Below are positions 39,916-51,383 of a stretch of 64,000 nt of DNA, in pieces. The notes beneath the pieces are model-generated. The model worked only from the letters and a program-made list of their open reading frames with translations. It was not told where the DNA came from and did no database searches. Source of the stretch: Escherichia phage PNJ1809-36; the sequence record MT944117.1; one strand, written 5' to 3'. Every line of letters begins with the position of its first letter. The stretch's first letter is position 1. The position numbers were made by a program, and so were the translations under genes.

Positions 39916-39944
39916 AGTATAAGCCCGATCCCTGGGCTTGTCAA
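39916..39944 (-). promoter_or_regulatory. consensus sigma70 promoter (TTGACA-17-TATACT) firing leftward into ORF-poor GC-rich DNA
   Basis: Minus-strand read TTGACAagcccagggatcgggctTATACT; spacer holds the palindrome agccc/gggct. Confidence 0.55.
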
Positions 39945-39946
39945 GA

Positions 39947-40213
39947 TTATTTTTTGTTTTCTTGCCAGGAAAGGACACCTAACCAAAAATGCATATCGCC
40001 CCGCGCCCCTGGTGGGATCTTGCTTTCCCCGCCGCCACTGCAAGCCCATAAATAACCATCAGCAAACGGATCAAAATGGTCTATCTCTTCCACCTTATGA
40101 TCGCCCAGGTTGAGAACGGTTTCAACCTTTAAGCCCGTTGCGCTTGCTACCTGGTGCACCGTGCCGCCTTGCCAGCCCAATGAGTGCATAAGGTGTAATG
40201 TAGTATTTGTCAT
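39947..40213 (-). CDS. hypothetical protein (88 aa) in GC-rich island
   Basis: ORF track; coding-like composition; upstream promoter TTGCTA-17-TATCAT at 40261..40289 and a GC leader hairpin. Confidence 0.35.
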   Translation of the reverse strand: MTNTTLHLMHSLGWQGGTVHQVASATGLKVETVLNLGDHKVEEIDHFDPFADGYLWACSGGGESKIPPGARGDMHFWLGVLSWQENKK

Positions 40214-40260
40214 GGTGTCGCCCTTTCTTTGTTGTGCGCCCTGGTTGGCGCGGTAGAAAG

Positions 40261-40289
40261 ATGATAGCCCTTTCTTTTATATATAGCAA
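40261..40289 (-). promoter_or_regulatory. sigma70-like promoter (TTGCTA-17-TATCAT) for the 88-aa gene
   Basis: Minus-strand read; followed by GC hairpin gcgcc-AACCAG-ggcgc. Confidence 0.4.
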
Positions 40290-40322
40290 GCAAAAAGAAA
40301 ATAAAAAAGATTGAAAAAGTGA

Positions 40323-40381
40323 TTGACGTTCGCCAGGTGGCGGCATAATATTTACCACGTAGGGCGGCAATGGTGCCGCTC
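40323..40381 (+). promoter_or_regulatory. promoter-hairpin cassette U1 (TTGACG-17-TAATAT, leader hairpin gggcggcAAUGGUgccgcuc)
   Basis: -35/-10 then a GC hairpin at the predicted transcript 5' end, then SD and ATG at 40401. Confidence 0.6.
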
Positions 40382-40400
40382 ATTATTTGGAGTTAAGATC

Positions 40401-40598
40401 ATGGCAACATTGCACATTGTGGCGAAAGCTGGACAAATCAACGTAATAGTAAACGGTTTTACTGAGTTCAGTCATCCCCAGGATGATCATGAAACGGTTT
40501 TATCTTTCATTGATTCACTGTTAGAAATGGGAGTAATTACAGAAGATCAGCATACTGCAAAATGCAAGCGCGTTAAGCAGATTGCAGGAATAGAATAA
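40401..40598 (+). CDS. hypothetical protein (about 65 aa)
   Basis: ORF track 40323..40598 trimmed to ATG after SD; the track start is the TTG of the -35 box. Confidence 0.45.
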   Translation: MATLHIVAKAGQINVIVNGFTEFSHPQDDHETVLSFIDSLLEMGVITEDQHTAKCKRVKQIAGIE

Positions 40599-40603
40599 AA
40601 GTC

Positions 40604-40666
40604 TTGACAACAAGCCACAACCTGATAAGATGTATCACATAGGGCGGCGGAATGGTCCAGCCGCTC
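40604..40666 (+). promoter_or_regulatory. promoter-hairpin cassette U2 (TTGACA-16-TAAGAT)
   Basis: Hairpin gggcggcggAAUGGUccagccgcuc. Confidence 0.6.
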
Positions 40667-40689
40667 ACAACAGAAGAGAGATTATAATC

Positions 40690-40962
40690 ATGGCATCATA
40701 TAGCGCAACAATGATCGTAGCTGGCACAACTGGTAAACCTATGAGCGGTGGCGGATCTTTCGCTAATATCAATATTGACGGGCGTTTATCCCTGGACGCA
40801 GCGATTGCCATTGCACGGGAAACATTTAAGAAAGAATGTAATTTCAACAAGCAAGATTATCTCGGTTTCGCTATTGAAAAAACCGCGCGCTTTGTTGATT
40901 ATAAAAGCCCGAAAATGGTTGATACTACACTAAAAGCGCAAGATGTAGCGTTTTTGCTTTAA
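40690..40962 (+). CDS. hypothetical protein (about 90 aa)
   Basis: ORF track trimmed to ATG with AGAAGAGAG SD. Confidence 0.45.
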   Translation: MASYSATMIVAGTTGKPMSGGGSFANINIDGRLSLDAAIAIARETFKKECNFNKQDYLGFAIEKTARFVDYKSPKMVDTTLKAQDVAFLL

Positions 40963-40965
40963 GGC

Positions 40966-41020
40966 TTGACATTAACGAATAATTTGTTAATATGTTACAT
41001 AAAGCGGGAATAGTTCCCGC
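40966..41020 (+). promoter_or_regulatory. promoter-hairpin cassette U3 (TTGACA-16-TAATAT)
   Basis: Hairpin gcgggaAUAGUUcccgc. Confidence 0.6.
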
Positions 41021-41038
41021 TATTTGTAAGGTGGTAGA

Positions 41039-41296
41039 ATGTTTTACATCAAATTAAAAGGTCACGTGATCGCGTTCAAAGATAACGCTTTTTACAGATT
41101 AGCAAAATATGCGTTAATACATCCCCACTATGTTTATATAAGGGGGCGTGATGAAATAAATATCTTTGATCAAACAACATGCGAGAACATCGAGATCCGC
41201 AAGGTTGGCGTACGTGATTATCGTACATCTTTCTACCCTTGCAAGGATTCAGCAAGTCTTTTTAAAGTATGCCAATTGTTGAAAAAAGGTGGTTAA
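41039..41296 (+). CDS. hypothetical protein (85 aa)
   Basis: ORF track. Confidence 0.45.
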   Translation: MFYIKLKGHVIAFKDNAFYRLAKYALIHPHYVYIRGRDEINIFDQTTCENIEIRKVGVRDYRTSFYPCKDSASLFKVCQLLKKGG

Positions 41297-41297
41297 T

Positions 41298-41855
41298 ATG
41301 GGCCGCGAATATGTGATCCAGTCTTGGGTAAAACATGAAGCAGATGATCCGCGCATCATTCCCGATCATCTTATCGATGAATCCACGGGATATAGCGGTG
41401 AGCAAATAGGTAACAGATTAGCACGTAGTAACGGCAACGTAAAAGCGCGTTATGTGCGCCCTGGCTGGCTGGCAAATGGTAACGCTGATTTATCCAGTGC
41501 GGAAGATGCGAGCGACGGCGCGAAAGATAATCCTTTGTACAAAGTTGATCCGGCTTTTCGTGTCCTGGATGAATACCCCAGCAAGATAGCGGCGCTTGAT
41601 GAAGCATTAGAAAGTAAGCGCATAACCTGGACCGCTTACAACATGGCAAAAAACGTACTTGATGGTAAATTGATTCAAGCCGAAAGAAAATTAGCCAAAA
41701 TTGCAGCCATAGCCCAGGAGGAAGACGAGGAGACAACGGAAGAGGAAGAGTACGAAGAGATCCCGCCGTTGTTGTGTATTGATGCTTTTCCTGATTATCA
41801 GCCGACAGAGGAAGAAAAAAGGATCGCACTAGAAAACTTTGAAAATAGTCTTTGA
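41298..41855 (+). CDS. hypothetical protein with acidic C-terminus (about 185 aa)
   Basis: ORF track trimmed to ATG; no own promoter. Confidence 0.45.
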   Translation: MGREYVIQSWVKHEADDPRIIPDHLIDESTGYSGEQIGNRLARSNGNVKARYVRPGWLANGNADLSSAEDASDGAKDNPLYKVDPAFRVLDEYPSKIAALDEALESKRITWTAYNMAKNVLDGKLIQAERKLAKIAAIAQEEDEETTEEEEYEEIPPLLCIDAFPDYQPTEEEKRIALENFENSL

Positions 41856-41910
41856 CATATCGCCGCCACTGGTATAATATTTACCACGTAGGGCGGCAAT
41901 GGTGCCGCTC
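41852..41910 (+). promoter_or_regulatory. promoter-hairpin cassette U4 (TTGACA-15-TATAAT)
   Basis: -35 overlaps upstream stop; hairpin identical to U1. Confidence 0.6.
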
Positions 41911-41937
41911 ATAGTGAAATTATGCAAGAGGTTTACA

Positions 41938-42033
41938 ATGATTAATAAAGAAAATAGCTTGACGGTTGGAACGATTAACGCTATCATTTTCGCCGTTCCA
42001 TTTTGGGTTGTAGTAGCGGCTATTATTTTCTAA
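41938..42033 (+). CDS. small hydrophobic peptide (31 aa)
   Basis: Manual translation MINKENSLTVGTINAIIFAVPFWVVVAAIIF; sole ORF behind cassette U4. Confidence 0.3.
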   Translation: MINKENSLTVGTINAIIFAVPFWVVVAAIIF

Positions 42034-42041
42034 AAATATTC

Positions 42042-42102
42042 TTGACAACGTTTTTTAATCTGATAAGATGTATCACATAGGGCGGCGGAATACTTCCCCG
42101 CC
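42042..42102 (+). promoter_or_regulatory. promoter-hairpin cassette U5 (TTGACA-16-TAAGAT)
   Basis: Hairpin gggcggcggaaUACuuccccgcc. Confidence 0.6.
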
Positions 42103-42123
42103 AAAACAAAAAAGGGTAACACA

Positions 42124-42486
42124 ATGAGCAAGCAAATCAATACTATCATGTTTAATCTGGTATCTTTCCGCGATGATATGAAAAATTTACCACGTGAAAC
42201 GGTTGATATTCATGTTTCAGCTTATCGCGCCCTTATTGATATGTTACCGCTAAAACGTGATCAACATGCCGCTAATATGATGCTTAATGCTATGCTTAAA
42301 AAGATGATTCAAACGGATCTTACTCTGGCGTATGAGTATCAAGGGCGCTTATATGCTACTTACAACAAGGCGGTACCTGGTCTGGGAAGTACCGAAGAGT
42401 TGCACGGCTTAAACTTGGATCAGAACACTTGGGATAGTATGCGCCGCGTTATGGTATGGGCCGAAAGCGGTAAAATTTACGAATAA
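42124..42486 (+). CDS. hypothetical protein (120 aa)
   Basis: ORF track. Confidence 0.45.
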   Translation: MSKQINTIMFNLVSFRDDMKNLPRETVDIHVSAYRALIDMLPLKRDQHAANMMLNAMLKKMIQTDLTLAYEYQGRLYATYNKAVPGLGSTEELHGLNLDQNTWDSMRRVMVWAESGKIYE

Positions 42487-42492
42487 AAACGG

Positions 42493-42552
42493 TTGACACT
42501 GTTTAAAATTCCGGTATAGTTTACCACATAGGGCGGGAAGTGGTTTCCCGCC
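42493..42552 (+). promoter_or_regulatory. promoter-hairpin cassette U6 (TTGACA-16-TATAGT)
   Basis: Hairpin gggcgggaaGUGGUuucccgcc. Confidence 0.6.
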
Positions 42553-42574
42553 AACAATGAAAAAGGTTATCATC

Positions 42575-42940
42575 ATGGCTATTAATATTAATGTTTCCTC
42601 TTATGCTACCCTGGCTAACACGGCTAAAATTGAATTATCCAGCATTGAGGCGGTGCATATTAGCGCCCGTCGCTGGTTTCAACAGTCCTACGGTAACACA
42701 TATTTTTCTTTAATGGTTGACGTTGAGATCGGCGGTAAACTGATCGAGGTGGTTAACGTTCCGTTTCAATATGGCTATGGTGATCATTTTGATACCGTCG
42801 CCCTGGAAGAATTTAGCAAGGTTATCAACCTTGAGGGCAAGGAATTTTCACGCGGCGCGTATCTTTCCCGTTTTTGCCGTGACAATGGGATCACTGTATA
42901 CAGTCATGCAAGCGATGTTAAACGTAAAAAAGATCTATAA
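42575..42940 (+). CDS. hypothetical protein (about 121 aa)
   Basis: ORF track 42557..42940 trimmed to second ATG (MAININ) by analogy with 43447. Confidence 0.4.
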   Translation: MAININVSSYATLANTAKIELSSIEAVHISARRWFQQSYGNTYFSLMVDVEIGGKLIEVVNVPFQYGYGDHFDTVALEEFSKVINLEGKEFSRGAYLSRFCRDNGITVYSHASDVKRKKDL

Positions 42941-42946
42941 AAAGCA

Positions 42947-43008
42947 TTGACAGCACGAATAAAAAGAGTAAACTGTATTACATAGAGAGCGGGAACACTT
43001 CCCGCCTC
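42947..43008 (+). promoter_or_regulatory. promoter-hairpin cassette U7 (TTGACA-16-TAAACT)
   Basis: Hairpin gcgggaaCACuucccgc. Confidence 0.6.
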
Positions 43009-43029
43009 ACTGAAAAAGAGAGAAAAATC

Positions 43030-43269
43030 ATGGCTAAATCTAAAATGTACAACGGTCACAAAAACAAAACTCATTGGAATGTAAGCCTGTGGATTAATAA
43101 CGATGAGGGATTGTATCGGTTTGCATTGGGATTGATCAATGAGTGCGGTAATAAAGATCAGGCGGCTGATTTAATGTGCTACCGTTTGAAACAGGATGGA
43201 ATCACTACAACGCCAGACGGCTTTAAGTATAGTAAAACTGCAATCCGCGCCGCTATGGTTGGAATGTAA
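43030..43269 (+). CDS. hypothetical protein (79 aa)
   Basis: ORF track. Confidence 0.45.
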   Translation: MAKSKMYNGHKNKTHWNVSLWINNDEGLYRFALGLINECGNKDQAADLMCYRLKQDGITTTPDGFKYSKTAIRAAMVGM

Positions 43270-43282
43270 AGGAGACATAAAA

Positions 43283-43363
43283 ATGAAACATCGTTCGACC
43301 TATCTCACAAAACGTTTTAGCTTAGATCATAAATTGGGCTATTACGGAAGAAATAGAAAATAA
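43283..43363 (+). CDS. possible 26-aa peptide
   Basis: AAGGAGACATAAAA then ATG; MKHRSTYLTKRFSLDHKLGYYGRNRK; very short. Confidence 0.2.
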   Translation: MKHRSTYLTKRFSLDHKLGYYGRNRK

Positions 43364-43364
43364 T

Positions 43365-43424
43365 TTGACAACGTTTAAAATTAGTGTAAGATGTATCACA
43401 TAGGGCGGGAAGTGGTTTCCCGCC
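43365..43424 (+). promoter_or_regulatory. promoter-hairpin cassette U8 (TTGACA-16-TAAGAT)
   Basis: Hairpin identical to U6. Confidence 0.6.
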
Positions 43425-43446
43425 AACAACAGAGAGATTAAAGATT

Positions 43447-43674
43447 ATGGCTATCAATATTGTTCGTGTATCCGGCACCGTTGGCAGTTCCCAGGTTGTA
43501 GCAGTTGTAACAAACAAAAAGATTAATGATGTATGTGAGATCTTGAATAAGTGGGCTATTGCTAATTTTGGAGAATATGCGAGCGTCGAGTACATCGAAT
43601 CCTACCAGGTGCCAACCATCAGCCTAACCGATCTCAACGTTGATCGCCTGTTATGCCTGGATGAATTAATCTGA
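43447..43674 (+). CDS. hypothetical protein (75 aa)
   Basis: ORF track. Confidence 0.45.
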   Translation: MAINIVRVSGTVGSSQVVAVVTNKKINDVCEILNKWAIANFGEYASVEYIESYQVPTISLTDLNVDRLLCLDELI

Positions 43675-43683
43675 AAAAGATTG

Positions 43684-43741
43684 TTGACACGGGAAAGAAA
43701 AAGAGTAAACTGTATTACGTAGGGCGGCAATGGTGCCGCTC
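43684..43741 (+). promoter_or_regulatory. promoter-hairpin cassette U9 (TTGACA-16-TAAACT)
   Basis: Hairpin identical to U1. Confidence 0.6.
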
Positions 43742-43764
43742 ACAACAGAAGAGAGATTATCACG

Positions 43765-43980
43765 ATGGCTAATATCCGCACACTGTTAAAAAATGCAAGT
43801 CAAGTTTTATTTTCAGATGACGAGTATTTCAATAAAGACATTACGGGCGTAAAAAGTCTTAAAGATGTAAAGGATGTAATAGGTATTCGCGGATCTTTAC
43901 GTAAGGGCGATTACTACGGTAACAAGGTGCAATATAAACTGTCAAAAGATTATGATTTTACTTTGACAATTATCAACTAA
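43765..43980 (+). CDS. hypothetical protein (71 aa)
   Basis: ORF track. Confidence 0.45.
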   Translation: MANIRTLLKNASQVLFSDDEYFNKDITGVKSLKDVKDVIGIRGSLRKGDYYGNKVQYKLSKDYDFTLTIIN

Positions 43981-43991
43981 GGGATCACAAA

Positions 43992-44150
43992 ATGAAAACT
44001 TGCCAATGTGGTAAAAAGTCTATCTCTGGTTTAAAACGTGGCGTTGCTCTTTGTCAATACCACTATAACGCTCAAACGTGGGGTAAGCAGTGGGCGGATC
44101 AGGTGGAAGAGGCAAAGAAAGAAAATATAAAAGTAGTTGCAAAGAAATAA
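43992..44150 (+). CDS. hypothetical small Cys-containing protein (52 aa)
   Basis: Manual translation MKTCQCGKKSISGLKRGVALCQYHYN... Confidence 0.35.
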   Translation: MKTCQCGKKSISGLKRGVALCQYHYNAQTWGKQWADQVEEAKKENIKVVAKK

Positions 44151-44199
44151 AAATAGAGTAAACTGTATTACATCAAGGCGGCGGAATGGTCCACCGCCT
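44137..44199 (+). promoter_or_regulatory. promoter-hairpin cassette U10 (TTGCAA-16-TAAACT)
   Basis: Hairpin ggcggcggAAUGGUccaccgcc. Confidence 0.5.
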
Positions 44200-44222
44200 A
44201 ACAAAGAGAAGAGGAAAATATC

Positions 44223-44390
44223 ATGATCACTTTCGCTACCCGTGAAGCCGCTCGCAACGTTGCACGTAAAGTTAACGCCGCCAACTTGGGCGCTACGCTT
44301 AAAGCCCCTGTAAAAGATGAATCAGGAAAATGGATCTTACCTGGTCTGCGTCATGCTGACAAGTTAGGTACTTTAAGCCTTAAAAAATAA
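44223..44390 (+). CDS. hypothetical basic protein (55 aa)
   Basis: Manual translation MITFATREAARNVARKVNAANLG... Confidence 0.4.
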   Translation: MITFATREAARNVARKVNAANLGATLKAPVKDESGKWILPGLRHADKLGTLSLKK

Positions 44391-44393
44391 TCG

Positions 44394-44431
44394 TTGACTT
44401 TTCGTTATAGCGCCTTATAATGGGCGCTATA
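44394..44431 (+). promoter_or_regulatory. promoter U11 (TTGACT-16-TATAAT) with -10 inside the loop of a 9-bp palindrome
   Basis: tatagcgccTTATAATGggcgctata. Confidence 0.5.
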
Positions 44432-44464
44432 GAGAAGAGAAACCACTATTAACAAGGAAACATC

Positions 44465-44686
44465 ATGATTACTTTTGCTATTGTCGCCGTTGTTGCTGGT
44501 CAGGTTTACGTAAACGAGACATTTACTACAGAAGACAAGGCCGCAGGAGATATAACCGCCGTTTACAATGAGTGCAAGGCAGTAGAAAGGATGTTATCGC
44601 CTTGTATGCTAATGAGTGAACGTCAGGATGGGATAACAGTATTTACTAACATTGAAACAGGGTACCAAATGGTAGTAACAAAATAA
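44465..44686 (+). CDS. hypothetical protein (73 aa)
   Basis: ORF track. Confidence 0.45.
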   Translation: MITFAIVAVVAGQVYVNETFTTEDKAAGDITAVYNECKAVERMLSPCMLMSERQDGITVFTNIETGYQMVVTK

Positions 44687-44689
44687 AGC

Positions 44690-44747
44690 TTGACACGTAT
44701 TTAATTTTCAGTAAACTGTTACACGTAGGGCGGGAATAGTTCCCGCT
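44690..44747 (+). promoter_or_regulatory. promoter-hairpin cassette U12 (TTGACA-16-TAAACT)
   Basis: Hairpin gggcgggaAUAGUUcccgcu. Confidence 0.6.
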
Positions 44748-44764
44748 AAAAAGAGAGAAAGACC

Positions 44765-45118
44765 ATGAAAGCACAAAATGCAATTAAAGAGTACATCCTT
44801 GCCGCTATCGATTTTAATGATTATGGTATTACAACCGAAAAAGAGAAGATCGCGGAATTGATGCGCCGTTTTAATTCCGAGTACTGGTACCCTGATAACC
44901 AATCACGTTTTAATTATAGTATTGTTAAAGCACTTGCATCATGGTTACAAGGTTTGCCATCAGATATTAATATCGCTTTCGAATATTGGGAAATTGATCG
45001 CTTGTTAACATCCTGGGGATACATTAAAGAGAATAGCAGCGATGATAAAATCCAACGAGAAAGGGAAAATTATTGGCTTTATATTGCAGGCGTGATCCTT
45101 GCTTGCTCTTATGAATGA
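44765..45118 (+). CDS. hypothetical protein (117 aa)
   Basis: ORF track. Confidence 0.45.
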   Translation: MKAQNAIKEYILAAIDFNDYGITTEKEKIAELMRRFNSEYWYPDNQSRFNYSIVKALASWLQGLPSDINIAFEYWEIDRLLTSWGYIKENSSDDKIQRERENYWLYIAGVILACSYE

Positions 45119-45124
45119 TAAACC

Positions 45125-45178
45125 TTGACAATTTTACAAAACAGTTTAAATTAATAATATAGCGGCAATGGTGCCGCT
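45125..45178 (+). promoter_or_regulatory. promoter-hairpin cassette U13 (TTGACA, AT-rich -10 region)
   Basis: Hairpin agcggcAAUGGUgccgcu; exact -10 register ambiguous. Confidence 0.5.
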
Positions 45179-45197
45179 CATATAAAGAGGAAACAAA

Positions 45198-45344
45198 ATG
45201 AATACATCTAATCGCGCAGAAAAAATTCAATCTTCCAAGATCCGCAAGGCCTGGAATGAGGAAGTGATCCGCAAAGGCGACAAGCGCAATAAAACAAAGC
45301 GCGGGAAGAGTGACAAATATAATTGGATGGATTTAGAGAATTAA
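45198..45344 (+). CDS. hypothetical basic protein (48 aa)
   Basis: Manual translation MNTSNRAEKIQSSKIRKAWNEEVIRKG... Confidence 0.4.
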   Translation: MNTSNRAEKIQSSKIRKAWNEEVIRKGDKRNKTKRGKSDKYNWMDLEN

Positions 45345-45350
45345 CATAAC

Positions 45351-45378
45351 AAGGGCGCACCAAGCGCCCTTTCTTTTT
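45351..45378 (+). terminator. intrinsic terminator, copy 1 of a duplicated 28-mer
   Basis: aagggcgcACCAAgcgcccuu followed by UCUUUUU; same sequence at 50806..50833. Confidence 0.7.
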
Positions 45379-45399
45379 ACATGTAGAGGATAAACAAAA

Positions 45400-45585
45400 A
45401 TGACTTTAAACGAGCTTAAAACAGCCTATAACGCAACATTAAAAATAGCCGTGCGTTACCGTGACGAATACGGTTTTATTGCGCAGGGCGTGATCCTGGG
45501 CTTTTCTGACGATGGTTTGATCTATGTTGATGCACATCACAACAAGGTTAAACTTGAAAACGTCATTAGCATAAAATATCTTTAA
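45400..45585 (+). CDS. hypothetical protein (61 aa)
   Basis: ORF track. Confidence 0.4.
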   Translation: MTLNELKTAYNATLKIAVRYRDEYGFIAQGVILGFSDDGLIYVDAHHNKVKLENVISIKYL

Positions 45586-45591
45586 AAGTGG

Positions 45592-45651
45592 TTGACACCA
45601 TAACCGGACCTGTTAAACTGTATTACATCAGGCGGGGAATAGTTCCCCACC
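45592..45651 (+). promoter_or_regulatory. promoter-hairpin cassette U14 (TTGACA-16-TAAACT)
   Basis: Hairpin ggcggggaAUAGuuccccacc. Confidence 0.55.
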
Positions 45652-45670
45652 ATACAAAAAGGTAAATATT

Positions 45671-45877
45671 ATGATCACCGCAAAACAAGAAAAAATCATT
45701 ATCGACGTTGCAGCCGTTGCCGCTATTGCTATTATCGGTACCTACTATGACACCGCGCGTCCTTCCTCCTTGCATGAGATCGCCGCCGTTGCATCAGTTG
45801 GCGTGCTGTTTTACGTTGGTAAACGTTATTTATCACCAATGATTAACAAGCTGACACCGTGGAAAAATAAAGGTTGA
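45671..45877 (+). CDS. small membrane protein (68 aa)
   Basis: ORF track; hydrophobic segments. Confidence 0.45.
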   Translation: MITAKQEKIIIDVAAVAAIAIIGTYYDTARPSSLHEIAAVASVGVLFYVGKRYLSPMINKLTPWKNKG

Positions 45878-45932
45878 TCCTGTTTTATATTGTGTTATAG
45901 TTATCGTGTAGGGCGGCAATGGTGCCGCGCCC
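45874..45932 (+). promoter_or_regulatory. promoter-hairpin cassette U15 (TTGATC-16-TATAGT)
   Basis: Hairpin gggcggcAAUGGUgccgcgccc. Confidence 0.5.
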
Positions 45933-45948
45933 CTTTGAGGATGCAATC

Positions 45949-46233
45949 ATGAGTAAAGCTAACACCGTGCTAATGTTTTCCCTGATTAATGATCCCGCTT
46001 ACTTGTCCAACATGACGCAGGAGGGTAACACATTAACGGCAACATTCACCAATAAGCTTGACCGAGTGATCATCATCTCACTGAAAACAGTTAGTAAAGG
46101 CTTTTACTCGTTAGCTTATCATTGGATCACTGATACCGATGAGACAAGCCAGGACTATAGCGCCCCTTTCCCTGAATCAATGGCACGGGAGATCATCGCC
46201 GCCGTTGTAAATGATGGTTTGTTTACTGCATAA
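45949..46233 (+). CDS. hypothetical protein (about 94 aa)
   Basis: ORF track 45919..46233 trimmed; the track start is the AUG inside the hairpin loop. Confidence 0.45.
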   Translation: MSKANTVLMFSLINDPAYLSNMTQEGNTLTATFTNKLDRVIIISLKTVSKGFYSLAYHWITDTDETSQDYSAPFPESMAREIIAAVVNDGLFTA

Positions 46234-46251
46234 AATAATTTAGAAAAAGGC

Positions 46252-46308
46252 TTGCAATCATTTTGAGATAGTGTATATTTAATTCATAGGGCGGCGGGAA
46301 TAGTTCCC
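46252..46308 (+). promoter_or_regulatory. promoter-hairpin cassette U16 (TTGCAA-16-TATATT)
   Basis: Hairpin gggaaUAGuuccc with 5' gggcggc extension. Confidence 0.5.
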
Positions 46309-46331
46309 AAAGCAAACGAGAGGATTACACG

Positions 46332-46451
46332 ATGAGCAAGTACACAGTAGAATACACGGTAGAGAATCCGGTAGTATCCGAAGGTAAAAAGATGACATTT
46401 GCCATCAGTATAATCGCTTTCGTTGTCACTATCTTATCAATCATCTTATAA
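46332..46451 (+). CDS. small membrane-anchored protein (39 aa)
   Basis: Manual translation MSKYTVEYTVENPVVSEGKKMTFAISIIAFVVTILSIIL. Confidence 0.35.
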   Translation: MSKYTVEYTVENPVVSEGKKMTFAISIIAFVVTILSIIL

Positions 46452-46461
46452 GGTGCACACC

Positions 46462-46623
46462 ATGAAAATAACAGACATTATCAAAGAGATCGCCCTTGCC
46501 GCTGGCGTTGAAGTCGAGGAAGTGATCGCGCTCAATCTTACAGAAAACGATCTGCGCAACTATGAAGCGGAAAGCGTGAAAGCAAGCGGCGCGGTCCTGG
46601 TATATGATCCGGCTAACAAGTAA
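46462..46623 (+). CDS. hypothetical protein (about 53 aa)
   Basis: ORF track 46423..46623 trimmed to ATG with AAGGTG SD. Confidence 0.4.
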   Translation: MKITDIIKEIALAAGVEVEEVIALNLTENDLRNYEAESVKASGAVLVYDPANK

Positions 46624-46632
46624 GGGGATAAC

Positions 46633-46743
46633 ATGAATCCGAAAGATATGCAAGCATGGAAAGGGTACGACGATCTAAGCGCCTTGCGCAATAAGTCAAG
46701 CCGTAACCTTAGACGGTTGGAAGCAAAGAAAAAGAAAAAATAG
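46633..46743 (+). CDS. possible basic peptide (36 aa)
   Basis: Manual translation MNPKDMQAWKGYDDLSALRNKSSRNLRRLEAKKKKK. Confidence 0.3.
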   Translation: MNPKDMQAWKGYDDLSALRNKSSRNLRRLEAKKKKK

Positions 46744-46744
46744 T

Positions 46745-46802
46745 TTGACAAGTCCGCGTAGTCTGATAATATGTATCTTGTAGCGCGGCAATGGTGCCGC
46801 TC
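46745..46802 (+). promoter_or_regulatory. promoter-hairpin cassette U17 (TTGACA-16-TAATAT)
   Basis: Hairpin gcgcggcAAUGGUgccgcuc. Confidence 0.6.
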
Positions 46803-46821
46803 ACAAGAAGAGAGAAAAATC

Positions 46822-47106
46822 ATGAAAATTACAAAAAGCCTAACTAATTATGCAGCACGTCGCGGATTATGCTTAACCGTTGAAAACTTAGGGAAAGAAG
46901 ACTTTTTGTGTTTTTGGGAGCTTGAGAATGATTGCGAGTGGATGTTTTCTTATTCTATCTGCGAAGATCAAAACGGTTGTTTGTTAACCTGGCGCGGTAA
47001 TATCTATTTACCGGAAGAAATTAAAGAAGAGTTACCAGGTACGATCATGACAGAGAGACAGCTTAAGGAAGTGATCAATTTTGTAGGGCAAAACATTAAA
47101 AAATAA
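46822..47106 (+). CDS. hypothetical protein (about 94 aa)
   Basis: ORF track 46771..47106 trimmed to ATG. Confidence 0.45.
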   Translation: MKITKSLTNYAARRGLCLTVENLGKEDFLCFWELENDCEWMFSYSICEDQNGCLLTWRGNIYLPEEIKEELPGTIMTERQLKEVINFVGQNIKK

Positions 47107-47107
47107 T

Positions 47108-47170
47108 TTGACAGTAGGCAAACAACGTAGTAAAGTTTATTACATAGAGCGGCGGAATGGTCCACCGCTC
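47108..47170 (+). promoter_or_regulatory. promoter-hairpin cassette U18 (TTGACA-17-TAAAGT)
   Basis: Hairpin gagcggcggAAUGGUccaccgcuc. Confidence 0.6.
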
Positions 47171-47191
47171 ACAACAGAAGAGAAACAAATC

Positions 47192-47362
47192 ATGATCCCG
47201 ACTATGTTTTATGTATCGCGCAAAGGTCACAATATTTTTTGGTCTGAAGATTTAAATGAAGCTATGACGTTTGCCCGTGATCGTGTTGCTATCGGTGGCG
47301 TTAACATCACCGTAACCGATGAAAATGGCATTGAATACTATAACGGCGACGATGAAGAATAA
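47192..47362 (+). CDS. hypothetical protein (about 56 aa)
   Basis: ORF track 47108..47362 trimmed; the track start is the -35 TTG. Confidence 0.4.
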   Translation: MIPTMFYVSRKGHNIFWSEDLNEAMTFARDRVAIGGVNITVTDENGIEYYNGDDEE

Positions 47363-47369
47363 TTAATGA

Positions 47370-47390
47370 GGCGGGGGAGTATTCCCCGCC
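47370..47390 (+). other. intercistronic GC hairpin without promoter
   Basis: ggcggggGAGUAUUccccgcc between the stop at 47362 and the next SD. Confidence 0.45.
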
Positions 47391-47409
47391 GTCAATAAAG
47401 AGGTAAATC

Positions 47410-47679
47410 ATGAAAATATCATTAGACGTTGCAATCAAGGCCATCGAATCTGGTTACATCCTGGTAAAAGATGATAAGGCTAAAATAGTGCATCATGTTA
47501 ACAAGGAAACAGGTGAAAGCATGATCACATATAAAGCCGCCTACTTTCTCCAATCAGTAGCAGATCCGCGCGTACAACGCCAGGTTACGGCGGCTATTGC
47601 TAAAAAATTATGTGCTTTACAGGGTACAAGTTTTAACGAGATCGCCCCGTGTTTTGAGTGGTCAAGCTTGAAAAAATAA
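47410..47679 (+). CDS. hypothetical protein (89 aa)
   Basis: ORF track. Confidence 0.45.
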   Translation: MKISLDVAIKAIESGYILVKDDKAKIVHHVNKETGESMITYKAAYFLQSVADPRVQRQVTAAIAKKLCALQGTSFNEIAPCFEWSSLKK

Positions 47680-47680
47680 T

Positions 47681-47742
47681 TTGACAACAATTATAAATCG
47701 GGTAGAATGTATTTCGTAGGGCGGGGCAATAAGGCAACGCCC
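47681..47742 (+). promoter_or_regulatory. promoter-hairpin cassette U19 (TTGACA-16-TAGAAT)
   Basis: Hairpin gggcg-(14-nt loop)-cgccc. Confidence 0.5.
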
Positions 47743-47760
47743 ATTAATGAGGGTAGAATC

Positions 47761-47865
47761 ATGTTAGAGAAAATTTTCACGGTCGTAGTAGTGGGCCTGG
47801 CGTTATCGGTTGGAGTGGTTGCGACTATGGCTAACATGATCCTATCTTCCCACGGTATCGGCTAA
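47761..47865 (+). CDS. small hydrophobic peptide (34 aa)
   Basis: Manual translation MLEKIFTVVVVGLALSVGVVATMANMILSSHGIG. Confidence 0.3.
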   Translation: MLEKIFTVVVVGLALSVGVVATMANMILSSHGIG

Positions 47866-47879
47866 AAGAGAGACACAAC

Positions 47880-48266
47880 ATGAAAACAGAAATCATTATT
47901 GAAATCATCAACGGCTATAAAGAAGCCTTTATTTTTGCTGAATCAGCAAGGGATCATGAAGGTAATTTTATTGATAACTTAGACGATTATGATTTTTCTC
48001 CTAGCGCGGACGAACGGATCGCCCAGGATGTAACAGCCTTTATTAATGCTAATCTTGCCGCTATCTCTGAGGCAATGAGCGACGGCGCAACAGCCAACCA
48101 GATCGGGAATGATTTACATTTTACCCGTAACAGTCACGGCGTAGGCTTTTGGGATCGCCCTGAAATATACACCACTAACACAGCCAACCGCCTAACCAAT
48201 GCAGCTAAGTTTATGCCGAACGTGTCGGCTTACATTGGTGAAGATAATTTGATTTATATTGAATAA
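47880..48266 (+). CDS. hypothetical acidic protein (128 aa)
   Basis: ORF track. Confidence 0.45.
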   Translation: MKTEIIIEIINGYKEAFIFAESARDHEGNFIDNLDDYDFSPSADERIAQDVTAFINANLAAISEAMSDGATANQIGNDLHFTRNSHGVGFWDRPEIYTTNTANRLTNAAKFMPNVSAYIGEDNLIYIE

Positions 48267-48272
48267 AAAGTA

Positions 48273-48329
48273 TTGACACAGATCGCCAGTGTGCTAATAT
48301 TTACCACGTAGGGCGGCAATGGTGCCGCC
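48273..48329 (+). promoter_or_regulatory. promoter-hairpin cassette U20 (TTGACA-16-TAATAT)
   Basis: Hairpin gggcggcAAUGGUgccgcc (no wobble pair). Confidence 0.6.
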
Positions 48330-48347
48330 GATAATGAGGAAAGTAAA

Positions 48348-48647
48348 ATGGAAACTATCGCTATTGTTACCGTAGAAAAACTGGTTGTTGGTGATGTATT
48401 CGCGTTAATGGTGCCTAACAGCAGCAAGCTGGGCGCTTATGAAGTAATGGATCATAAAAATGAATCATTTGGCGACGGTTGCACAATGGCGGTAAAATCC
48501 TTAAAGGATGGAATCATCCGTCAAGCTAATTGGCACAAAGGGAATCAAGTCGGATTAATATCAGCTAATTTCTTGCCAGAAGAGCAAACGTTAGACCAAC
48601 TATCAGGCGGTAAGACGTTAGCCGAACTACTGGAAACAGCGATCTAA
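48348..48647 (+). CDS. hypothetical protein (99 aa)
   Basis: ORF track. Confidence 0.45.
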   Translation: METIAIVTVEKLVVGDVFALMVPNSSKLGAYEVMDHKNESFGDGCTMAVKSLKDGIIRQANWHKGNQVGLISANFLPEEQTLDQLSGGKTLAELLETAI

Positions 48648-48655
48648 TCAACAAA

Positions 48656-48669
48656 GGGCGGCAACGCCC
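48656..48669 (+). other. intercistronic GNRA-tetraloop hairpin
   Basis: gggcgGCAAcgccc. Confidence 0.45.
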
Positions 48670-48690
48670 CACATCAGAAAGGAAAAGATT

Positions 48691-48927
48691 ATGAGTATTG
48701 CAACAGTATTAACCGCCGTTAAAACCGCTGAATCATCCGGCTTGCATGTTGAGCTTATAGATCAACCAGGTGGCGATCTCCTTGTCCAGGTTTACCCGCC
48801 GAAAGTAGGAGATGATTATTATTGGTGCTATTCTGATACGTTCGAACAAGTAGACACGAAAGCGATCACGGCTTTTATTTTAAAAGCTGTTGAAGAAAAT
48901 AACTTTCATTATAACATCAATCAATAA
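48691..48927 (+). CDS. hypothetical protein (78 aa)
   Basis: ORF track. Confidence 0.45.
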   Translation: MSIATVLTAVKTAESSGLHVELIDQPGGDLLVQVYPPKVGDDYYWCYSDTFEQVDTKAITAFILKAVEENNFHYNINQ

Positions 48928-48937
48928 ACTTTAAGCA

Positions 48938-48951
48938 GGGCGGTAACGCCC
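48938..48951 (+). other. intercistronic GNRA-tetraloop hairpin
   Basis: gggcgGUAAcgccc. Confidence 0.45.
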
Positions 48952-48982
48952 TATTAAACGCAATAGGAAGAGGATAGAAAGC

Positions 48983-49273
48983 ATGAAAAAGATGATCGCA
49001 GTAGTTGCCCTGGTTGTTGGTATTAACGCGCCTGCAATGGCTAATGATTTGCCTGAATCCATCACGTTAACCGATATCAACGCGGTAAACCGGATCGGTG
49101 TTAATTATCGCCTATGCCTTGCCGCTAAAACTTTCCAGGACGGCACGACAGAATACCACGGATTCGAGGGTATCCGCTGCGGTGAGCTTGCACGCGACCT
49201 TAAGGAAGATCCAGACCTTGAGGCCATACCGATGACCGTAAACGGTAAAGCTTACGTAAACCGCCAACAATGA
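48983..49273 (+). CDS. secreted protein (96 aa)
   Basis: ORF track; signal peptide MKKMIAVVALVVGINAPAMA. Confidence 0.45.
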   Translation: MKKMIAVVALVVGINAPAMANDLPESITLTDINAVNRIGVNYRLCLAAKTFQDGTTEYHGFEGIRCGELARDLKEDPDLEAIPMTVNGKAYVNRQQ

Positions 49274-49284
49274 GAAAGGTAATC

Positions 49285-49404
49285 ATGACAATGGGGATCA
49301 TAGTAGCAACGCTGGCGCTGATCCCCTTCCTGGTTGAATATGTGCTGATTAGTGTTGTCCTGGTAGTCAGTGACTTATTGGAAACGGTTGGCACCTGGTT
49401 TTAA
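49285..49404 (+). CDS. small membrane protein (39 aa)
   Basis: Manual translation MTMGIIVATLALIPFLVEYVLISVVLVVSDLLETVGTWF. Confidence 0.35.
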   Translation: MTMGIIVATLALIPFLVEYVLISVVLVVSDLLETVGTWF

Positions 49405-49416
49405 GGAGTAATAAAA

Positions 49417-49608
49417 ATGAATGCAGAACAAGTTAGAAAGGTATTAGCAGCGTTGCGGTATCACAACCATAGCAAGGTAAAGAATGATCCTGATTATGTG
49501 GATTCAAGCCTGGAAGAAGACACATTGCAAGCTATAAGCCATATGCAAGAATTGTTTAAGCGTATGACAGAGAAAAACAGATCTGATTATATAGGTGACG
49601 AGATCTAA
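49417..49608 (+). CDS. hypothetical protein (63 aa)
   Basis: ORF track. Confidence 0.45.
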   Translation: MNAEQVRKVLAALRYHNHSKVKNDPDYVDSSLEEDTLQAISHMQELFKRMTEKNRSDYIGDEI

Positions 49609-49614
49609 TCCTTA

Positions 49615-49647
49615 CAAAAACAGGGCTTGCTTTTGTCCTGTTTTTTG
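49615..49647 (+). terminator. intrinsic terminator
   Basis: aaaacagg-(12-nt loop)-ccuguuuu followed by UUG. Confidence 0.5.
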
Positions 49648-49785
49648 TTATACTTATTGAACGGGCGGCACCTGGTAGCAGGGGAAGATAATCACCGGAC
49701 GACCCCGCTATATATTGATAGCTAACATCTATCAAACAACAAAACATCAAAGAAATAAACTATCAAATCTTTACAATGCTACCTA

Positions 49786-49846
49786 TTGACACCGGATCAC
49801 GCTTACATTATTATTTATCACGTAGGGCGAGCAATACAGCAAGCCC
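49786..49846 (+). promoter_or_regulatory. promoter-hairpin cassette U21 (TTGACA-17-TATTAT)
   Basis: Hairpin gggcgagcAAUACagcaagccc. Confidence 0.5.
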
Positions 49847-49863
49847 ACAAAGAGGAAAATAAA

Positions 49864-50232
49864 ATGAGCAAATCAGCAATTAAAGCACTTGAAAAAGCAC
49901 AAGAAGTGATCGCAACGTCAACCACTGGCGCAAAGGTTAATCTCGTTGGTTATCTGACAGATGAAACTATCCGTAAAAATTGGCGTAATGCTGATTTACT
50001 GGCTTGCTTATTGATTAATAGTGTCGCTAATGCTTTCCAGTGTGAAACAGCCGAGAGCCTGGAGGCAAACTTGTTCGACAGTATGGATCAAGCCATTGAA
50101 ACCTATATTCAATCAAATTTAGATAGCTGGAACAATAAAACATGGCCCGACAACTTACGCGATACAACTGATCAACTGATCCGCCTTGCCGTGATGGTTG
50201 AACGCGATAACGTTCACAACCGCACAAAGTAA
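49864..50232 (+). CDS. hypothetical protein (about 122 aa)
   Basis: ORF track 49786..50232 trimmed to ATG with AAAGAGGAAA SD. Confidence 0.45.
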   Translation: MSKSAIKALEKAQEVIATSTTGAKVNLVGYLTDETIRKNWRNADLLACLLINSVANAFQCETAESLEANLFDSMDQAIETYIQSNLDSWNNKTWPDNLRDTTDQLIRLAVMVERDNVHNRTK

Positions 50233-50241
50233 GATTATACA

Positions 50242-50263
50242 AGGGGCGCACTAAGCGCCCTTT
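50242..50263 (+). other. GC hairpin after gene (weak terminator)
   Basis: aggggcgcACUAAgcgcccuu with only a short U run. Confidence 0.35.
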
Positions 50264-50290
50264 AACGTAAAGAAATGTAAATAATGCGCT

Positions 50291-50327
50291 ATCCCCTATT
50301 GACAGGGGATCGGCGTTATATTATATT
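50291..50327 (+). promoter_or_regulatory. promoter (TTGACA-17-TATATT) with -35 embedded in a perfect 7-bp inverted repeat (operator-like)
   Basis: atcccctATTGACaggggat. Confidence 0.5.
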
Positions 50328-50372
50328 TAACTCACTGGCAGCAAACAACGAAACGAAACAAAGGACAACACC

Positions 50373-50792
50373 ATGAACATTAAATCAAATAATCCAGCTT
50401 ACTCCTTCGATAACGCTTTTTGTCACGGTAGCGCCGCCAAAGGCTTCGAAATCGATGGTAAATTGGTTATCGTGAACGTTGACGGGGAAGAGGTTGCAGT
50501 ATATCCGGTAAACGATGTTAAAAGCCGTTTACAATGCCGCATGGATGTTACCGCATATCAGCTTGATCCGGTCCGTGTAGTTGCCCTGGTATTAGAGGAA
50601 GAGATCAAAGCAATGCATCATAGTAATAAGTTTATTGGTGACGCGCAGGATAATATGAACGTTTGCCGCCATAAAGTTAATGAAGCCTTGAAAGAATGCG
50701 GTTTTAAGGATCTGATGATTAAACGTGATGAAAAATTCCGCTTTCGTAATGACCTGGCAAACCGGATCTACTCAATCTATGAAGCGTTATAA
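50373..50792 (+). CDS. hypothetical protein (139 aa)
   Basis: ORF track. Confidence 0.45.
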   Translation: MNIKSNNPAYSFDNAFCHGSAAKGFEIDGKLVIVNVDGEEVAVYPVNDVKSRLQCRMDVTAYQLDPVRVVALVLEEEIKAMHHSNKFIGDAQDNMNVCRHKVNEALKECGFKDLMIKRDEKFRFRNDLANRIYSIYEAL

Positions 50793-50805
50793 TTGACAAC
50801 AAAAC

Positions 50806-50833
50806 AAGGGCGCACCAAGCGCCCTTTCTTTTT
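50806..50833 (+). terminator. intrinsic terminator, copy 2 of the duplicated 28-mer
   Basis: aagggcgcACCAAgcgcccuu followed by UCUUUUU. Confidence 0.7.
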
Positions 50834-51038
50834 GCCCGAATAATGTTGATAGATTCCGCCTATGAAAAACCGACACAGAACAAAACTGAATAGATCGCGG
50901 TATCGAGCTAATCAACCATTAAACGAATAACCATACCTCCCAGGGTAACAGGTTGTTAGAGAGCCATTTAGAGCGGTTAAAATCGATCAACAACCAACAA
51001 CAAACCATCAAAAACACCCTTTTACCTCCTTTCTAGTG

Positions 51039-51058
51039 CAATGATAACCATTATCATC
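51039..51058. promoter_or_regulatory. Fur-box-like operator C
   Basis: gcAATGATAAcCATTATCatc. Confidence 0.45.
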
Positions 51059-51383
51059 TATCCATGTTTATCTATGCAATATAAGTGCATAACTATAATG
51101 TTGATAATAGTTCGCAACAACTAACTAACCAACAACCTAAAACAATAAGCAAACTAATCATAATCAAAGGAATAATAGCAAGATGATTGATAACGACAAA
51201 CAATCAAACCATGATGAATACTAAGCAAGATAACGATAACACGACAAAACAACCAACTAACGAACAATAACAAACGAAACCATTAAAATAACAACTATTA
51301 GCAAAATAGTGCCTGAATGAAATCATTACAAAACGAATCATTCACAGGATCATCATTAGCACGCTATGCCGGACACATAGCGA

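Follow-up and report, generated by a model that had tools for sequence, protein, structure and literature searches.

Promoter-early stem-loop (PeSL) cassettes have been described in the T4-type phages RB49/phi1, T4/PST and KVP40/nt-1 (Arbiol et al. 2010, PMC2839356; Comeau et al. 2014, PMC4122927). In these cassettes, the stem-loop lies mostly between the -35 and -10 hexamers or over the -10 and terminates transcription from upstream, and recombination between flanking cassettes gives rise to encapsidated mini-circles (PMC2839356, PMC4122927); the terminator activity was shown with a lacZ reporter (PMC2839356). Also comparable are the 5'-terminal stem-loops that stabilise mRNA, such as those of ompA (hp1), papA and RNA I (cited in PMC3997798), and the repeated sigma70-type promoters in early regions of small open reading frames (ORFs) of rV5 (PMC3606486), Certrevirus CB7 (PMC7344957) and, as 41-nt repeats, PAK_P1-like phages (PMC4309531). 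Here we describe an array of promoter-hairpin cassettes at positions 40323-50833 of a 64,000-nt stretch of DNA from Escherichia phage PNJ1809-36 (MT944117.1; the whole stretch analysed is called the window), which is assigned to Phapecoctavirus (Stephanstirmvirinae) and hence to the phAPEC8-type E. coli myoviruses of ~150 kb. The repeated unit, a regulatory cassette of ~80 nt, is very probably an early promoter cassette of a PeSL-like kind that is prone to recombination.

Scanning the window on both strands for promoters combined with folds, together with a standard consensus scan, identified 22 strong sigma70-type promoters between 40323 and 50299, each with a TTGACA-like -35, a 15-17 nt spacer and a TAnnnT -10. 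The + strand from 40323 to 50372 holds these 22 promoters, 34 small ORFs and three promoter-less hairpins, in good agreement with the preliminary description of the locus, which had counted about 21 cassettes with one to three genes each. A leader hairpin is present behind 20 of the promoters; at 44394 and 50299, no leader hairpin follows. The recurrence of the unit is confirmed by the pattern TTGAC-N20-32-TAGGGCGG, which matches 10 times, on the + strand only, from 40323 to 48273, with a chance expectation of none. Similarly, GCGG-N5-16-CCGC gives 24 matches against 1.4 expected, all except three within 40364-48328. The 25 nt upstream of the -35 are 73% A+T, compared with 60.6% for the window, and the ORFs (26-185 aa, one to three per promoter) have a purine-rich Shine-Dalgarno sequence (SD) and an ATG.

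The hairpin keeps a fixed position relative to its promoter. In the window cassettes, the GC core begins 9-12 nt past the -10 hexamer, which places the hairpin inside the transcript, among its first ~30 nt. If transcription begins at the usual seventh or eighth nucleotide after the -10, the stem would begin at about +3 to +5 and not, as had been proposed, at the predicted +1 itself. Counted from the seventh nucleotide, an unpaired 5' tail of 0-5 nt is predicted (median 4; +/-1 depending on the start chosen), and weak flanking pairs carry the helix to the predicted 5' end in the units at 41852, 43684, 46745 and 49786. The SD is left free, with 8-27 nt between hairpin end and ATG. Compared with dinucleotide shuffles, 18 of the 20 leaders fold at z -2.9 to -5.3, the leaders at 45905 and 46283 folding no better than shuffles. 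Within the stems, G stands on the 5' arm in 266 pairs and C in 62. The loops differ in both sequence and size (ATGG 12 times and TAG 8 times; also TGG, TAC, GTGGT, AATACA, ATAG, ACGG, TGT, CAC, and further AAUAAG, GCAA and GUAA). The units of the array and the elements between them are as follows.

40323-40400, + strand: cassette 1, TTGACG -35, -10 ending at 40350, leader hairpin 40362-40381 (GGGCGGCAATGGTGCCGCTC), SD, ATG 40401
40330-40343, + strand: small extra hairpin within the promoter spacer of cassette 1
40604-40689, + strand: cassette 2, TTGACA/TAAGAT, hairpin 40642-40666 (bulged 10-bp type), ATG 40690
40966-41038, + strand: cassette 3, promoter, hairpin 41003-41021 (AGCGGGAA-TAG-TTCCCGCT); genes 41039-41296 and 41298-41855
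41852-41937, + strand: cassette 4, TTGACA/TATAAT, hairpin 41891-41910, ATG 41938 (31-aa ORF)
42042-42123, + strand: cassette 5, promoter, hairpin 42081-42102, ATG 42124
42493-42574, + strand: cassette 6, promoter, hairpin 42532-42552; junction of a cassette-plus-gene insertion in relatives
42947-43029, + strand: cassette 7, promoter, hairpin 42985-43008; genes 43030-43269 (DUF7249) and 43283-43363
43365-43446, + strand: cassette 8, promoter, hairpin 43404-43424, ATG 43447
43684-43764, + strand: cassette 9, promoter, hairpin 43722-43741; genes 43765-43980 and 43992-44150
44137-44222, + strand: cassette 10, weaker -35 TTGCAA, -10 TAAACT, hairpin 44176-44199 with a C/A mismatch
44394-44464, + strand: cassette 11, TTGACT/TATAAT, no leader hairpin; an inverted repeat, 44407-44414 / 44422-44430, brackets the -10 in classical PeSL geometry
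44690-44764, + strand: cassette 12, promoter, hairpin 44729-44747, ATG 44765
45125-45197, + strand: cassette 13, promoter, hairpin 45161-45178; gene 45198-45344 (T7 gene 1.1 family, PF08200)
45351-45378, + strand: canonical intrinsic terminator inside the array, AAGGGCGCACCAAGCGCCCTT followed by TCTTTTT
45592-45670, + strand: cassette 14, promoter, hairpin 45631-45651 including a C/A mismatch
45874-45948, + strand: cassette 15, TTGATC/TATAGT, hairpin 45911-45931 (z -0.5, no better than shuffles)
46252-46331, + strand: cassette 16, TTGCAA/TATATT, degenerate hairpin 46296-46308 (outer 3' arm gone; z -0.9); three ORFs, 46332-46743
46745-46821, + strand: cassette 17, promoter, hairpin 46776-46808, with core 46785-46800 and CUUGU/ACAAG pairing toward the predicted 5' end
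47108-47191, + strand: cassette 18, promoter, hairpin 47147-47170
47370-47390, + strand: promoter-less intercistronic hairpin, GGCGGGGGA-GTA-TTCCCCGCC; stop codon 7 nt before, ATG 47410 19 nt after
47681-47760, + strand: cassette 19, promoter, branched hairpin 47719-47742
48273-48347, + strand: cassette 20, promoter, hairpin 48312-48329
48657-48670, + strand: promoter-less hairpin between cistrons, GGGCG-GCAA-CGCCC
48937-48952, + strand: promoter-less hairpin, AGGGCG-GTAA-CGCCCT
49616-49652, + strand: canonical terminator, 11-bp stem and T-tract, behind gene 49417-49608
49786-49863, + strand: cassette 21, TTGACA/TATTAT, branched hairpin 49822-49848, ATG 49864
50243: weak terminator, stem plus T-tract
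50299-50372, + strand: promoter 22, TTGACA/TATATT, no leader hairpin; CCCCT/AGGGG (50293-50308) brackets the -35; gene 50373-50792
50806-50833, + strand: terminator at the array end, stem-loop identical to that at 45351, then TCTTTTT

The three promoter-less hairpins had been placed at 47370, 48656 and 48938 in the preliminary description, and were found at 47370, 48657 and 48937.

Comparison with close relatives shows that genes have been gained, lost or exchanged, with the junctions lying in the cassettes. Colinear BLAST blocks between the array and six phapecoctaviruses gave 80 internal breakpoints, which are phylogenetically non-independent, and 43 of them fall within cassettes, which cover 28% of the region; most of the remainder coincide with other junctions between genes, and a few lie within genes. 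Individual events illustrate this. Phage anhysbys (L001) is without gene 48691-48927, and the promoter-less hairpins that flank it (48657 and 48937) are fused into one, the two blocks overlapping by 18 nt and being joined inside the two hairpins. Three relatives (L002, L003 and L004) carry an inserted cassette-plus-gene unit at the 42493 cassette, and ORFs 161/162, which are specific to the rV5-like phage FV3, are bounded by phAPEC8-type cassettes within an rV5-type array. Different hairpin types stand in otherwise identical gene, promoter and SD flanks at genes 40690, 43447, 43765, 46822 and 47192 across phages, and it follows that whole hairpins are exchanged, presumably by gene conversion between paralogous cassettes. 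At genes 47761, 48348 and 49864, a constant hairpin, SD and gene are combined with differing promoter halves, the two parts meeting where the hairpin begins on its 5' side. L001, L003 and L006 carry another promoter half at the 48273 cassette, joined at the same hairpin's 5' edge, and the hairpin, SD and gene of cassette 19 are conserved as far as FV3 while the promoter half differs among relatives. The cassettes are thus paralogous repeats that serve as substrates for homologous recombination, with promoter halves and whole hairpins exchanged independently of each other.

The array matches ~270 phage records, the best being Phapecoctavirus at 95-97% identity and 59-93% coverage in 7-13 pieces, and this fragmentation at partial coverage marks the region as mosaic. 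A single 89-nt cassette used as query matched 154 records in Phapecoctavirus, Justusliebigvirus (phi92-like) and Vequintavirus (rV5-like), the Vequintavirus matches running from the -10 onward only. The hairpins are therefore found in related phages, on which the preliminary description had made its case depend: they are present in Phapecoctavirus and Justusliebigvirus and, in part, in Vequintavirus. In the phi92-like phage alia, a hairpin stands at the same offset behind 15 of about 23 strong promoters. In FV3, hairpins occur at a subset of promoters only and their stems are unrelated in sequence (for example GGGGCAAACGTCTTGCCCC, CGGGGAGACACTCCCC and GGGCCAAAAGGCCC), and despite this they begin 8-10 nt past the -10. 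Across phi92-like and rV5-like phages together, the core lies 8-11 nt past the -10 even with unrelated stems, and the position of the hairpin relative to the promoter is thus conserved where its sequence is not. W70 and WPEC6 contribute further stems (GCCGCA/TGCGGC and TGGCGGCA/TGCCGCTA). Over all fetched loci, leaders with a minimum free energy of -9 kcal/mol or lower occur at 179 of 319 loosely defined promoter-plus-gene-start sites, compared with 6.5% of random 36-mers. An exact-word scan of IMG/VR with a promoter-proximal 19-mer returned two contigs only.

Covariation in the stems is modest. A plain MAFFT alignment of 47 hairpin regions, in which only the mostly invariant outer helix was scored, gave 80% paired cells against 76% in shuffles and a covariation score of 0.121 against 0.107 (63/500), which is not significant. 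As MAFFT mis-registers the inner helices of different hairpin types, a covariance model was built from a seed of 10 rows, seven real and three synthetic type-B hairpins trimmed to equal length; the synthetic rows served to seed the search only, and counts were made on real matches. Over 290 kb, the model gave 198 matches, at 20-42 bits on the sense strand and at most 14 bits on the antisense strand, and in WPEC6 the matches switch strand together with the annotated genes. In the model-fitted alignment (60 distinct rows), 95.1% of cells pair, compared with 86.6 +/- 0.9% in shuffles (0/500) and 37-59% in slid controls, and the covariation score is 0.241 against 0.107 (0/500). Such an alignment favours the structure to which it was fitted and its rows are related, so this result is to be taken cautiously.

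A small number of pairs carries the signal: pair 7 (C-G in 34 rows, G-C in 25), pair 1 (G-C in 37, A-U in 5, U-A in 1) and pair 2 (G-U in 24, G-C in 19, A-U in 10). Among the eight core pairs, three show two-sided change, a number that is not unusual against shuffles (48/500). Four pairs, those of GCGG/CCGC, are near-invariant (58-60 of the 60 rows). When 3' arms were exchanged among 49 distinct hairpins, the mean fold weakened from -12.9 to -9.1 +/- 0.33 kcal/mol (0/200), and pairing is kept across 49-65 distinct hairpins. Orthologous hairpins, promoter-less ones included, also show compensated changes: in the 48937 hairpin, the outer A-U pair of the window is replaced by G-C in L002 and L004 and by A/C in L005; L005 and L007 have U-A at the position of the C/A mismatch in the 44176 hairpin; and a paired indel in the 47370 hairpin preserves the stem in L005. 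The W70/WPEC6 variants given above are further examples. The earlier proposal that the covarying stems reveal selection on RNA structure is thus only moderately supported by the alignments, in that some pairs do change on both sides, with the qualification that half of the core hardly varies and that the variety of hairpins comes largely from swaps of whole hairpins among about eight types.

When these results are considered together, a recombining array of early cassettes with a hairpin that acts at the RNA level is the best explanation, to which as a whole we give about an even chance. The block would comprise accessory genes of a phAPEC8-type myovirus that are transcribed early by the host RNA polymerase, each cassette presenting in order an AT-rich tract, a near-consensus sigma70 promoter, a G-run/loop/C-run hairpin, a purine-rich SD and an ATG. 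The hairpin would act as RNA and not as a canonical terminator. As a self-contained structure in the leader or between cistrons, it would lengthen or insulate the lifetime of the individual early mRNAs; primary or processed transcripts may be shielded from enzymes that attack by way of the 5' end (RppH/RNase E), and 3' exonucleases may be stalled on transcripts that read through, with the result that any ORFan behind a cassette could be expressed independently of its neighbours. An RNA-level leader or intercistronic element is suggested by the absence of a U-tract, the tie to gene orientation, the fixed distance to the promoter, the free SD and the pairing kept in promoter-less copies. That the hairpin stabilises mRNA in this way is proposed tentatively and has, in our view, somewhat less than an even chance. 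It accords with reports that a 5'-terminal stem-loop blocks RppH and that both RppH and RNase E require unpaired 5' nucleotides (PMC8833179, PMC3997798).

Several observations weigh against a stabilising role. Two unpaired nucleotides suffice for RppH and RNase E, three or more being preferred (PMC8833179), so that with the predicted tail most hairpins lie too far in to bar access to the 5' end alone; access would be blocked only if starts lay nearer to the stem than predicted, and pure 5'-end protection is accordingly uncertain. Stem-loops of the ordinary kind are also readily passed by scanning RNase E (PMC9943677). Some sites do without the hairpin: L003 and L006 have lost its 5' arm upstream of 48983, and it is degenerate at 46283 and absent from many FV3 promoters. 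In a strand test, 14 G-U pairs stood against 8 C/A mismatches, each from one or two hairpin families, which favours neither strand, and much of the apparent covariation reflects the swaps among hairpin types and not independent compensatory mutation. Finally, the polarity of the G-rich 5' arm and the near-invariant GCGG/CCGC core are left unexplained by a purely structural stabiliser; together with the conserved TAGGGCGG, the G-rich arm hints at an additional initiation-proximal or protein-recognition role.

A different function for the same stems would be as attenuators or terminators that damp read-through from upstream, so that each gene mainly uses its own promoter, with polymerases that have just initiated 25-30 nt upstream perhaps being spared. 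The stem-loop of PeSL211/210 lowered reporter expression to an extent comparable with the rrnB T1 terminator (PMC2839356), the G-run/loop/C-run composition is shared with PeSLs (PMC4122927), the promoter-less copies follow directly behind stop codons, and the units at 44394 and 50299 show the classical within-promoter geometry. The record of phage vB_Eco_PATM (OX090893.1) even labels two of the leader hairpins (6016-6040 and 11909-11932) 'terminator'. Those two sit between a sigma70 promoter and an SD and are without a U-tract, which argues against the label. The same holds in the window: the 10-nt tail contains no T in 11 of the 20 leaders and at most four in any, compared with six at the terminators 45351, 49616 and 50806, and a single leader hairpin (40362) passed a terminator scan. 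A canonical intrinsic terminator was consequently ruled out as the identity of the hairpins. Moreover, a hairpin downstream of its own promoter would attenuate its own transcript too; the fixed 9-12 nt offset is needless for upstream termination, PeSL stem-loops occurring at 'various positions' (PMC2839356); and ordinary terminators are used where needed. A damping function is therefore improbable in our estimation. N4-type hairpin promoters and RNase III sites were also set aside, as a complete sigma70 promoter precedes each leader hairpin and the stems are just 7-11 bp long.

It could also be speculated that the element works during initiation. With a G-cluster at about +4 to +9, the first RNA:DNA hybrid would be strong and promoter escape would be aided, after which the C-rich arm might pair with the G-rich RNA and so avert R-loops or backtracking, or set a hairpin-dependent pause near the SD. 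Near-consensus promoters with AT-rich upstream tracts, as found here, are of the type for which escape can be limiting. The distance to the -10 is fixed even with unrelated stems, G is nearly always on the 5' arm, and the 3' arms differ in step with a conserved TAGGGCGG. The promoter-less hairpins, however, are conserved with compensated changes, and the cores in W70 and FV3 are G-poor or unrelated; we rate this explanation as low as a terminator function.

Slightly less probable still, and offered as speculation, is a wider version of the stabilising role, in which the hairpin would be a lineage-wide mark on essentially all early mRNAs of phAPEC8-, phi92- and rV5-type phages, sparing them while host mRNA is destroyed by RNase E in a process that the phage speeds up, and thereby forming an RNA-level signal of self versus non-self that moves together with the promoter. 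For rV5, the presence of an Srd-like protein has been proposed (PMC3606486). If this were true, a newly captured ORFan would gain expression and protection in one step.

We attach little probability to the hairpin or its GGGCGG box being the site of a phage or host protein, such as a boxB/N-type antiterminator, an early-mRNA nuclease, a translational repressor or a factor that shuts early promoters at a DNA operator. The near-invariance of the GCGG/CCGC core and the fixed position of TAGGGCGG beside 10 promoters would suit such a site, and about 24 copies would allow coordinated control of the block by one factor. The loops, however, are unconserved, variable arm length and spacing speak against a dimeric DNA-binding protein, and the GCGG core is missing from rV5-like and W70 hairpins; conservation of the core is also explicable by concerted evolution through cassette recombination. 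A covariance scan of 39000-53000 against Rfam 15 (E-value mode) returned only a chance match to STnc320, whose 25 bits fall short of the gathering score (50). Just as doubtful is the notion that the hairpins have no role in expression and are palindromic hot spots or passengers, kept as selfish or 'mobile' repeats by promoting recombination or gene conversion, since, although junctions fall inside or at the edge of hairpins, whole hairpins are swapped between otherwise identical cassettes, an RB49 crossover maps within the loop (PMC2839356) and the hairpin can be lost at some sites, its orientation is tied to the gene strand and its position to the -10 across three genera, its pairing survives point changes, and the promoter and SD repeats already provide homology that makes a palindrome unnecessary.

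The genes served by the array are poorly characterised. In annotated relatives, every gene under an array match is a 'hypothetical protein'. Of the 34 array proteins, 29 were compared with Pfam and matched only DUF7249 (product of 43030-43269, E 8e-12) and the T7 gene 1.1 family (product of 45198-45344, a 48-aa homologue of the T7 early protein 1.1; PF08200, E 5e-13), and the 10 longest all matched PHROGs families of unknown function. Homology to anti-defence or plasmid leading-region families had been envisaged, and neither the Pfam comparison of 29 proteins nor the PHROGs comparison of the 10 longest gave a functional or anti-defence assignment. The compositional argument for acquired cargo also falls away: the array was thought to be about 50% GC against about 37% around it, and the measured values are 41.5% against 39.0% for the rest of the window, with other 10.5-kb windows at 38.3%-39.9% and similar GC in coding and intergenic parts of the array. 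Elsewhere, the window encodes a Toprim and DnaB_C primase-helicase (3727-5505), by which the description of its replication genes as T7-like is loosely true, as well as NrdD, a UvrD-type helicase, TelA and TerC.

The preliminary description confined the cassettes to 40323-50833, and there is one more outside this range:

18060-18136, - strand: lone cassette, TTGACA-16-TAAGAT, hairpin 18078-18096 (GCGGGGAA-TAG-TTCCCCGC), SD, ATG 18060; TerC-family gene 17086-18060

A homologue of TelA (toxic anion resistance) is encoded at 13761-14873, 2 kb beyond this cassette-driven gene for a TerC-family membrane protein, and the two look like a phage-borne tellurite-resistance-like pair under an early promoter. 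Within the array, the terminators at 45351-45371 and 50806-50826 are symmetric, identical stem-loops 5.4 kb apart, each with an A-run before and a T-run after. Gene 45400-45585, behind the first of these, has no promoter of its own and would therefore depend on read-through. Just upstream of the array, short tandem repeats (39321-39369, 24 nt x 2.1; 39611-39692, 29 nt x 2.8) lie near a divergent 88-aa gene (39947-40213, - strand), and relatives' records carry 'repeat_region' features at the equivalent place. Directly after the array, 50850-52300 is ~1.4 kb without a convincing ORF, AT-rich (34% GC at 51001-52000), without a match to Rfam and 93-99% conserved in about 45 relatives, almost all of which lack annotation there. 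As the ESCO13 record (KX552041.2) begins at about window position 50869, with the array at its opposite end, a physical genome end or origin may lie in this region.

Some matching records raise questions of their own. Enterococcus phage heks (MT119359.1), a 39.7-kb siphovirus record, holds two phi92/phAPEC8-type array genes at ~177-1000, which come with E. coli-type promoter-hairpin cassettes in the first ~1 kb of the record. Its source was Danish wastewater, shared with the coliphages anhysbys and alia, and a chimeric assembly is most likely, as opposed to a real transfer. Several records of 141-151 kb without annotation, which name Campylobacter jejuni as the phage host (MG0656xx, 'Campylobacter phage A150/A110a/B15/A142/A13b'), match the array and the flanking non-coding region at up to 94% identity, and their host labels are probably wrong; related records labelled as Pseudomonas, Acinetobacter and Klebsiella phages pose the same question.

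If our reading is right, promoter/stem-loop cassettes that shuffle ORFans are not peculiar to T4-type phages, and could represent a convergent or a shared design of large lytic coliphages. A hairpin inside the transcript allows the two published roles, termination and recombination, to be told apart, and suggests an RNA leader function as a third. With E. coli K-12 hosts, about 270 sequenced relatives and natural hairpin swaps in otherwise identical cassettes, the system is tractable and could reveal the actual job of the stem-loop in such cassettes. On a practical level, the ~80-nt cassettes are ready-made modules of strong promoter, leader and SD, and the hairpins are at present labelled as terminators in at least one record (OX090893.1).

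Placed beside the systems introduced at the outset, the array shares much with PeSLs: the repeats are intergenic and about 80-100 bp long; an AT-rich tract precedes a near-consensus sigma70 promoter; the same cassette holds a G-run/loop/C-run stem-loop and, at its 3' end, the SD and start codon of a downstream ORFan; the repeats cluster in a hyperplastic block of genes without known function; indels or replacements that distinguish close relatives have their junctions in the repeats, in some cases inside the stem-loop; and degraded 'half' copies occur. It differs in that, in 20 of the 22 units, the hairpin follows the -10 at a constant distance of 9-12 nt and is part of its own transcript, without a U-tract, the published geometry being found only at 44394 (-10 bracketed), at 50299 (-35 bracketed) and in the small spacer hairpin at 40330-40343, and in that the host genome is a Stephanstirmvirinae myovirus with another replication module and is not T4-like. 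Five of the seven PeSL features examined are therefore present, and the two absent ones, a stem-loop within the promoter and a T4-type genome, are defining, so that the match to PeSLs first put forward stands for promoters, stem-loops, SD/ATG, ORFans and junctions and not for stem-loop position or lineage. The array is accordingly not a PeSL sensu stricto and is called a PeSL-like cassette.

With 5' stabilisers, the array hairpins share stability very near the predicted transcript 5' end, a stem sequence largely free to vary, an unoccluded SD and the lack of a U-tract. The stem-loop in the leader of T7 gene 10 is a further 5'-terminal, mRNA-stabilising example. The array element differs from this group in being repeated about 20 times in a recombining cassette, in its conserved G-rich 5' arm and in its predicted tail (0-5 nt, median 4), protection requiring fewer than about two unpaired 5' nucleotides (PMC8833179). 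Intrinsic terminators have a similar G/C-rich stem of 7-11 bp and loop of 3-5 nt, but the hairpins here are without a U-tract and placed behind a promoter rather than a gene; the conserved loop sequence of boxB/nut antiterminators was not found, loops being variable. With the rV5, CB7 and PAK_P1-like repeats, the array shares many near-consensus host-type promoters in a block of short hypothetical genes, presumed early, and conservation beyond the two hexamers. Those descriptions make no mention of a leader hairpin or of cassette-mediated shuffling, and a literature search for hairpins in phAPEC8-, rV5- and phi92-type phages found only promoter lists and promoter consensus. For this phage group, the novelty thus lies in the hairpin component, the promoter array itself having been reported before, and modular shuffling of the PeSL type is here present in a phage lineage where it had not been described.

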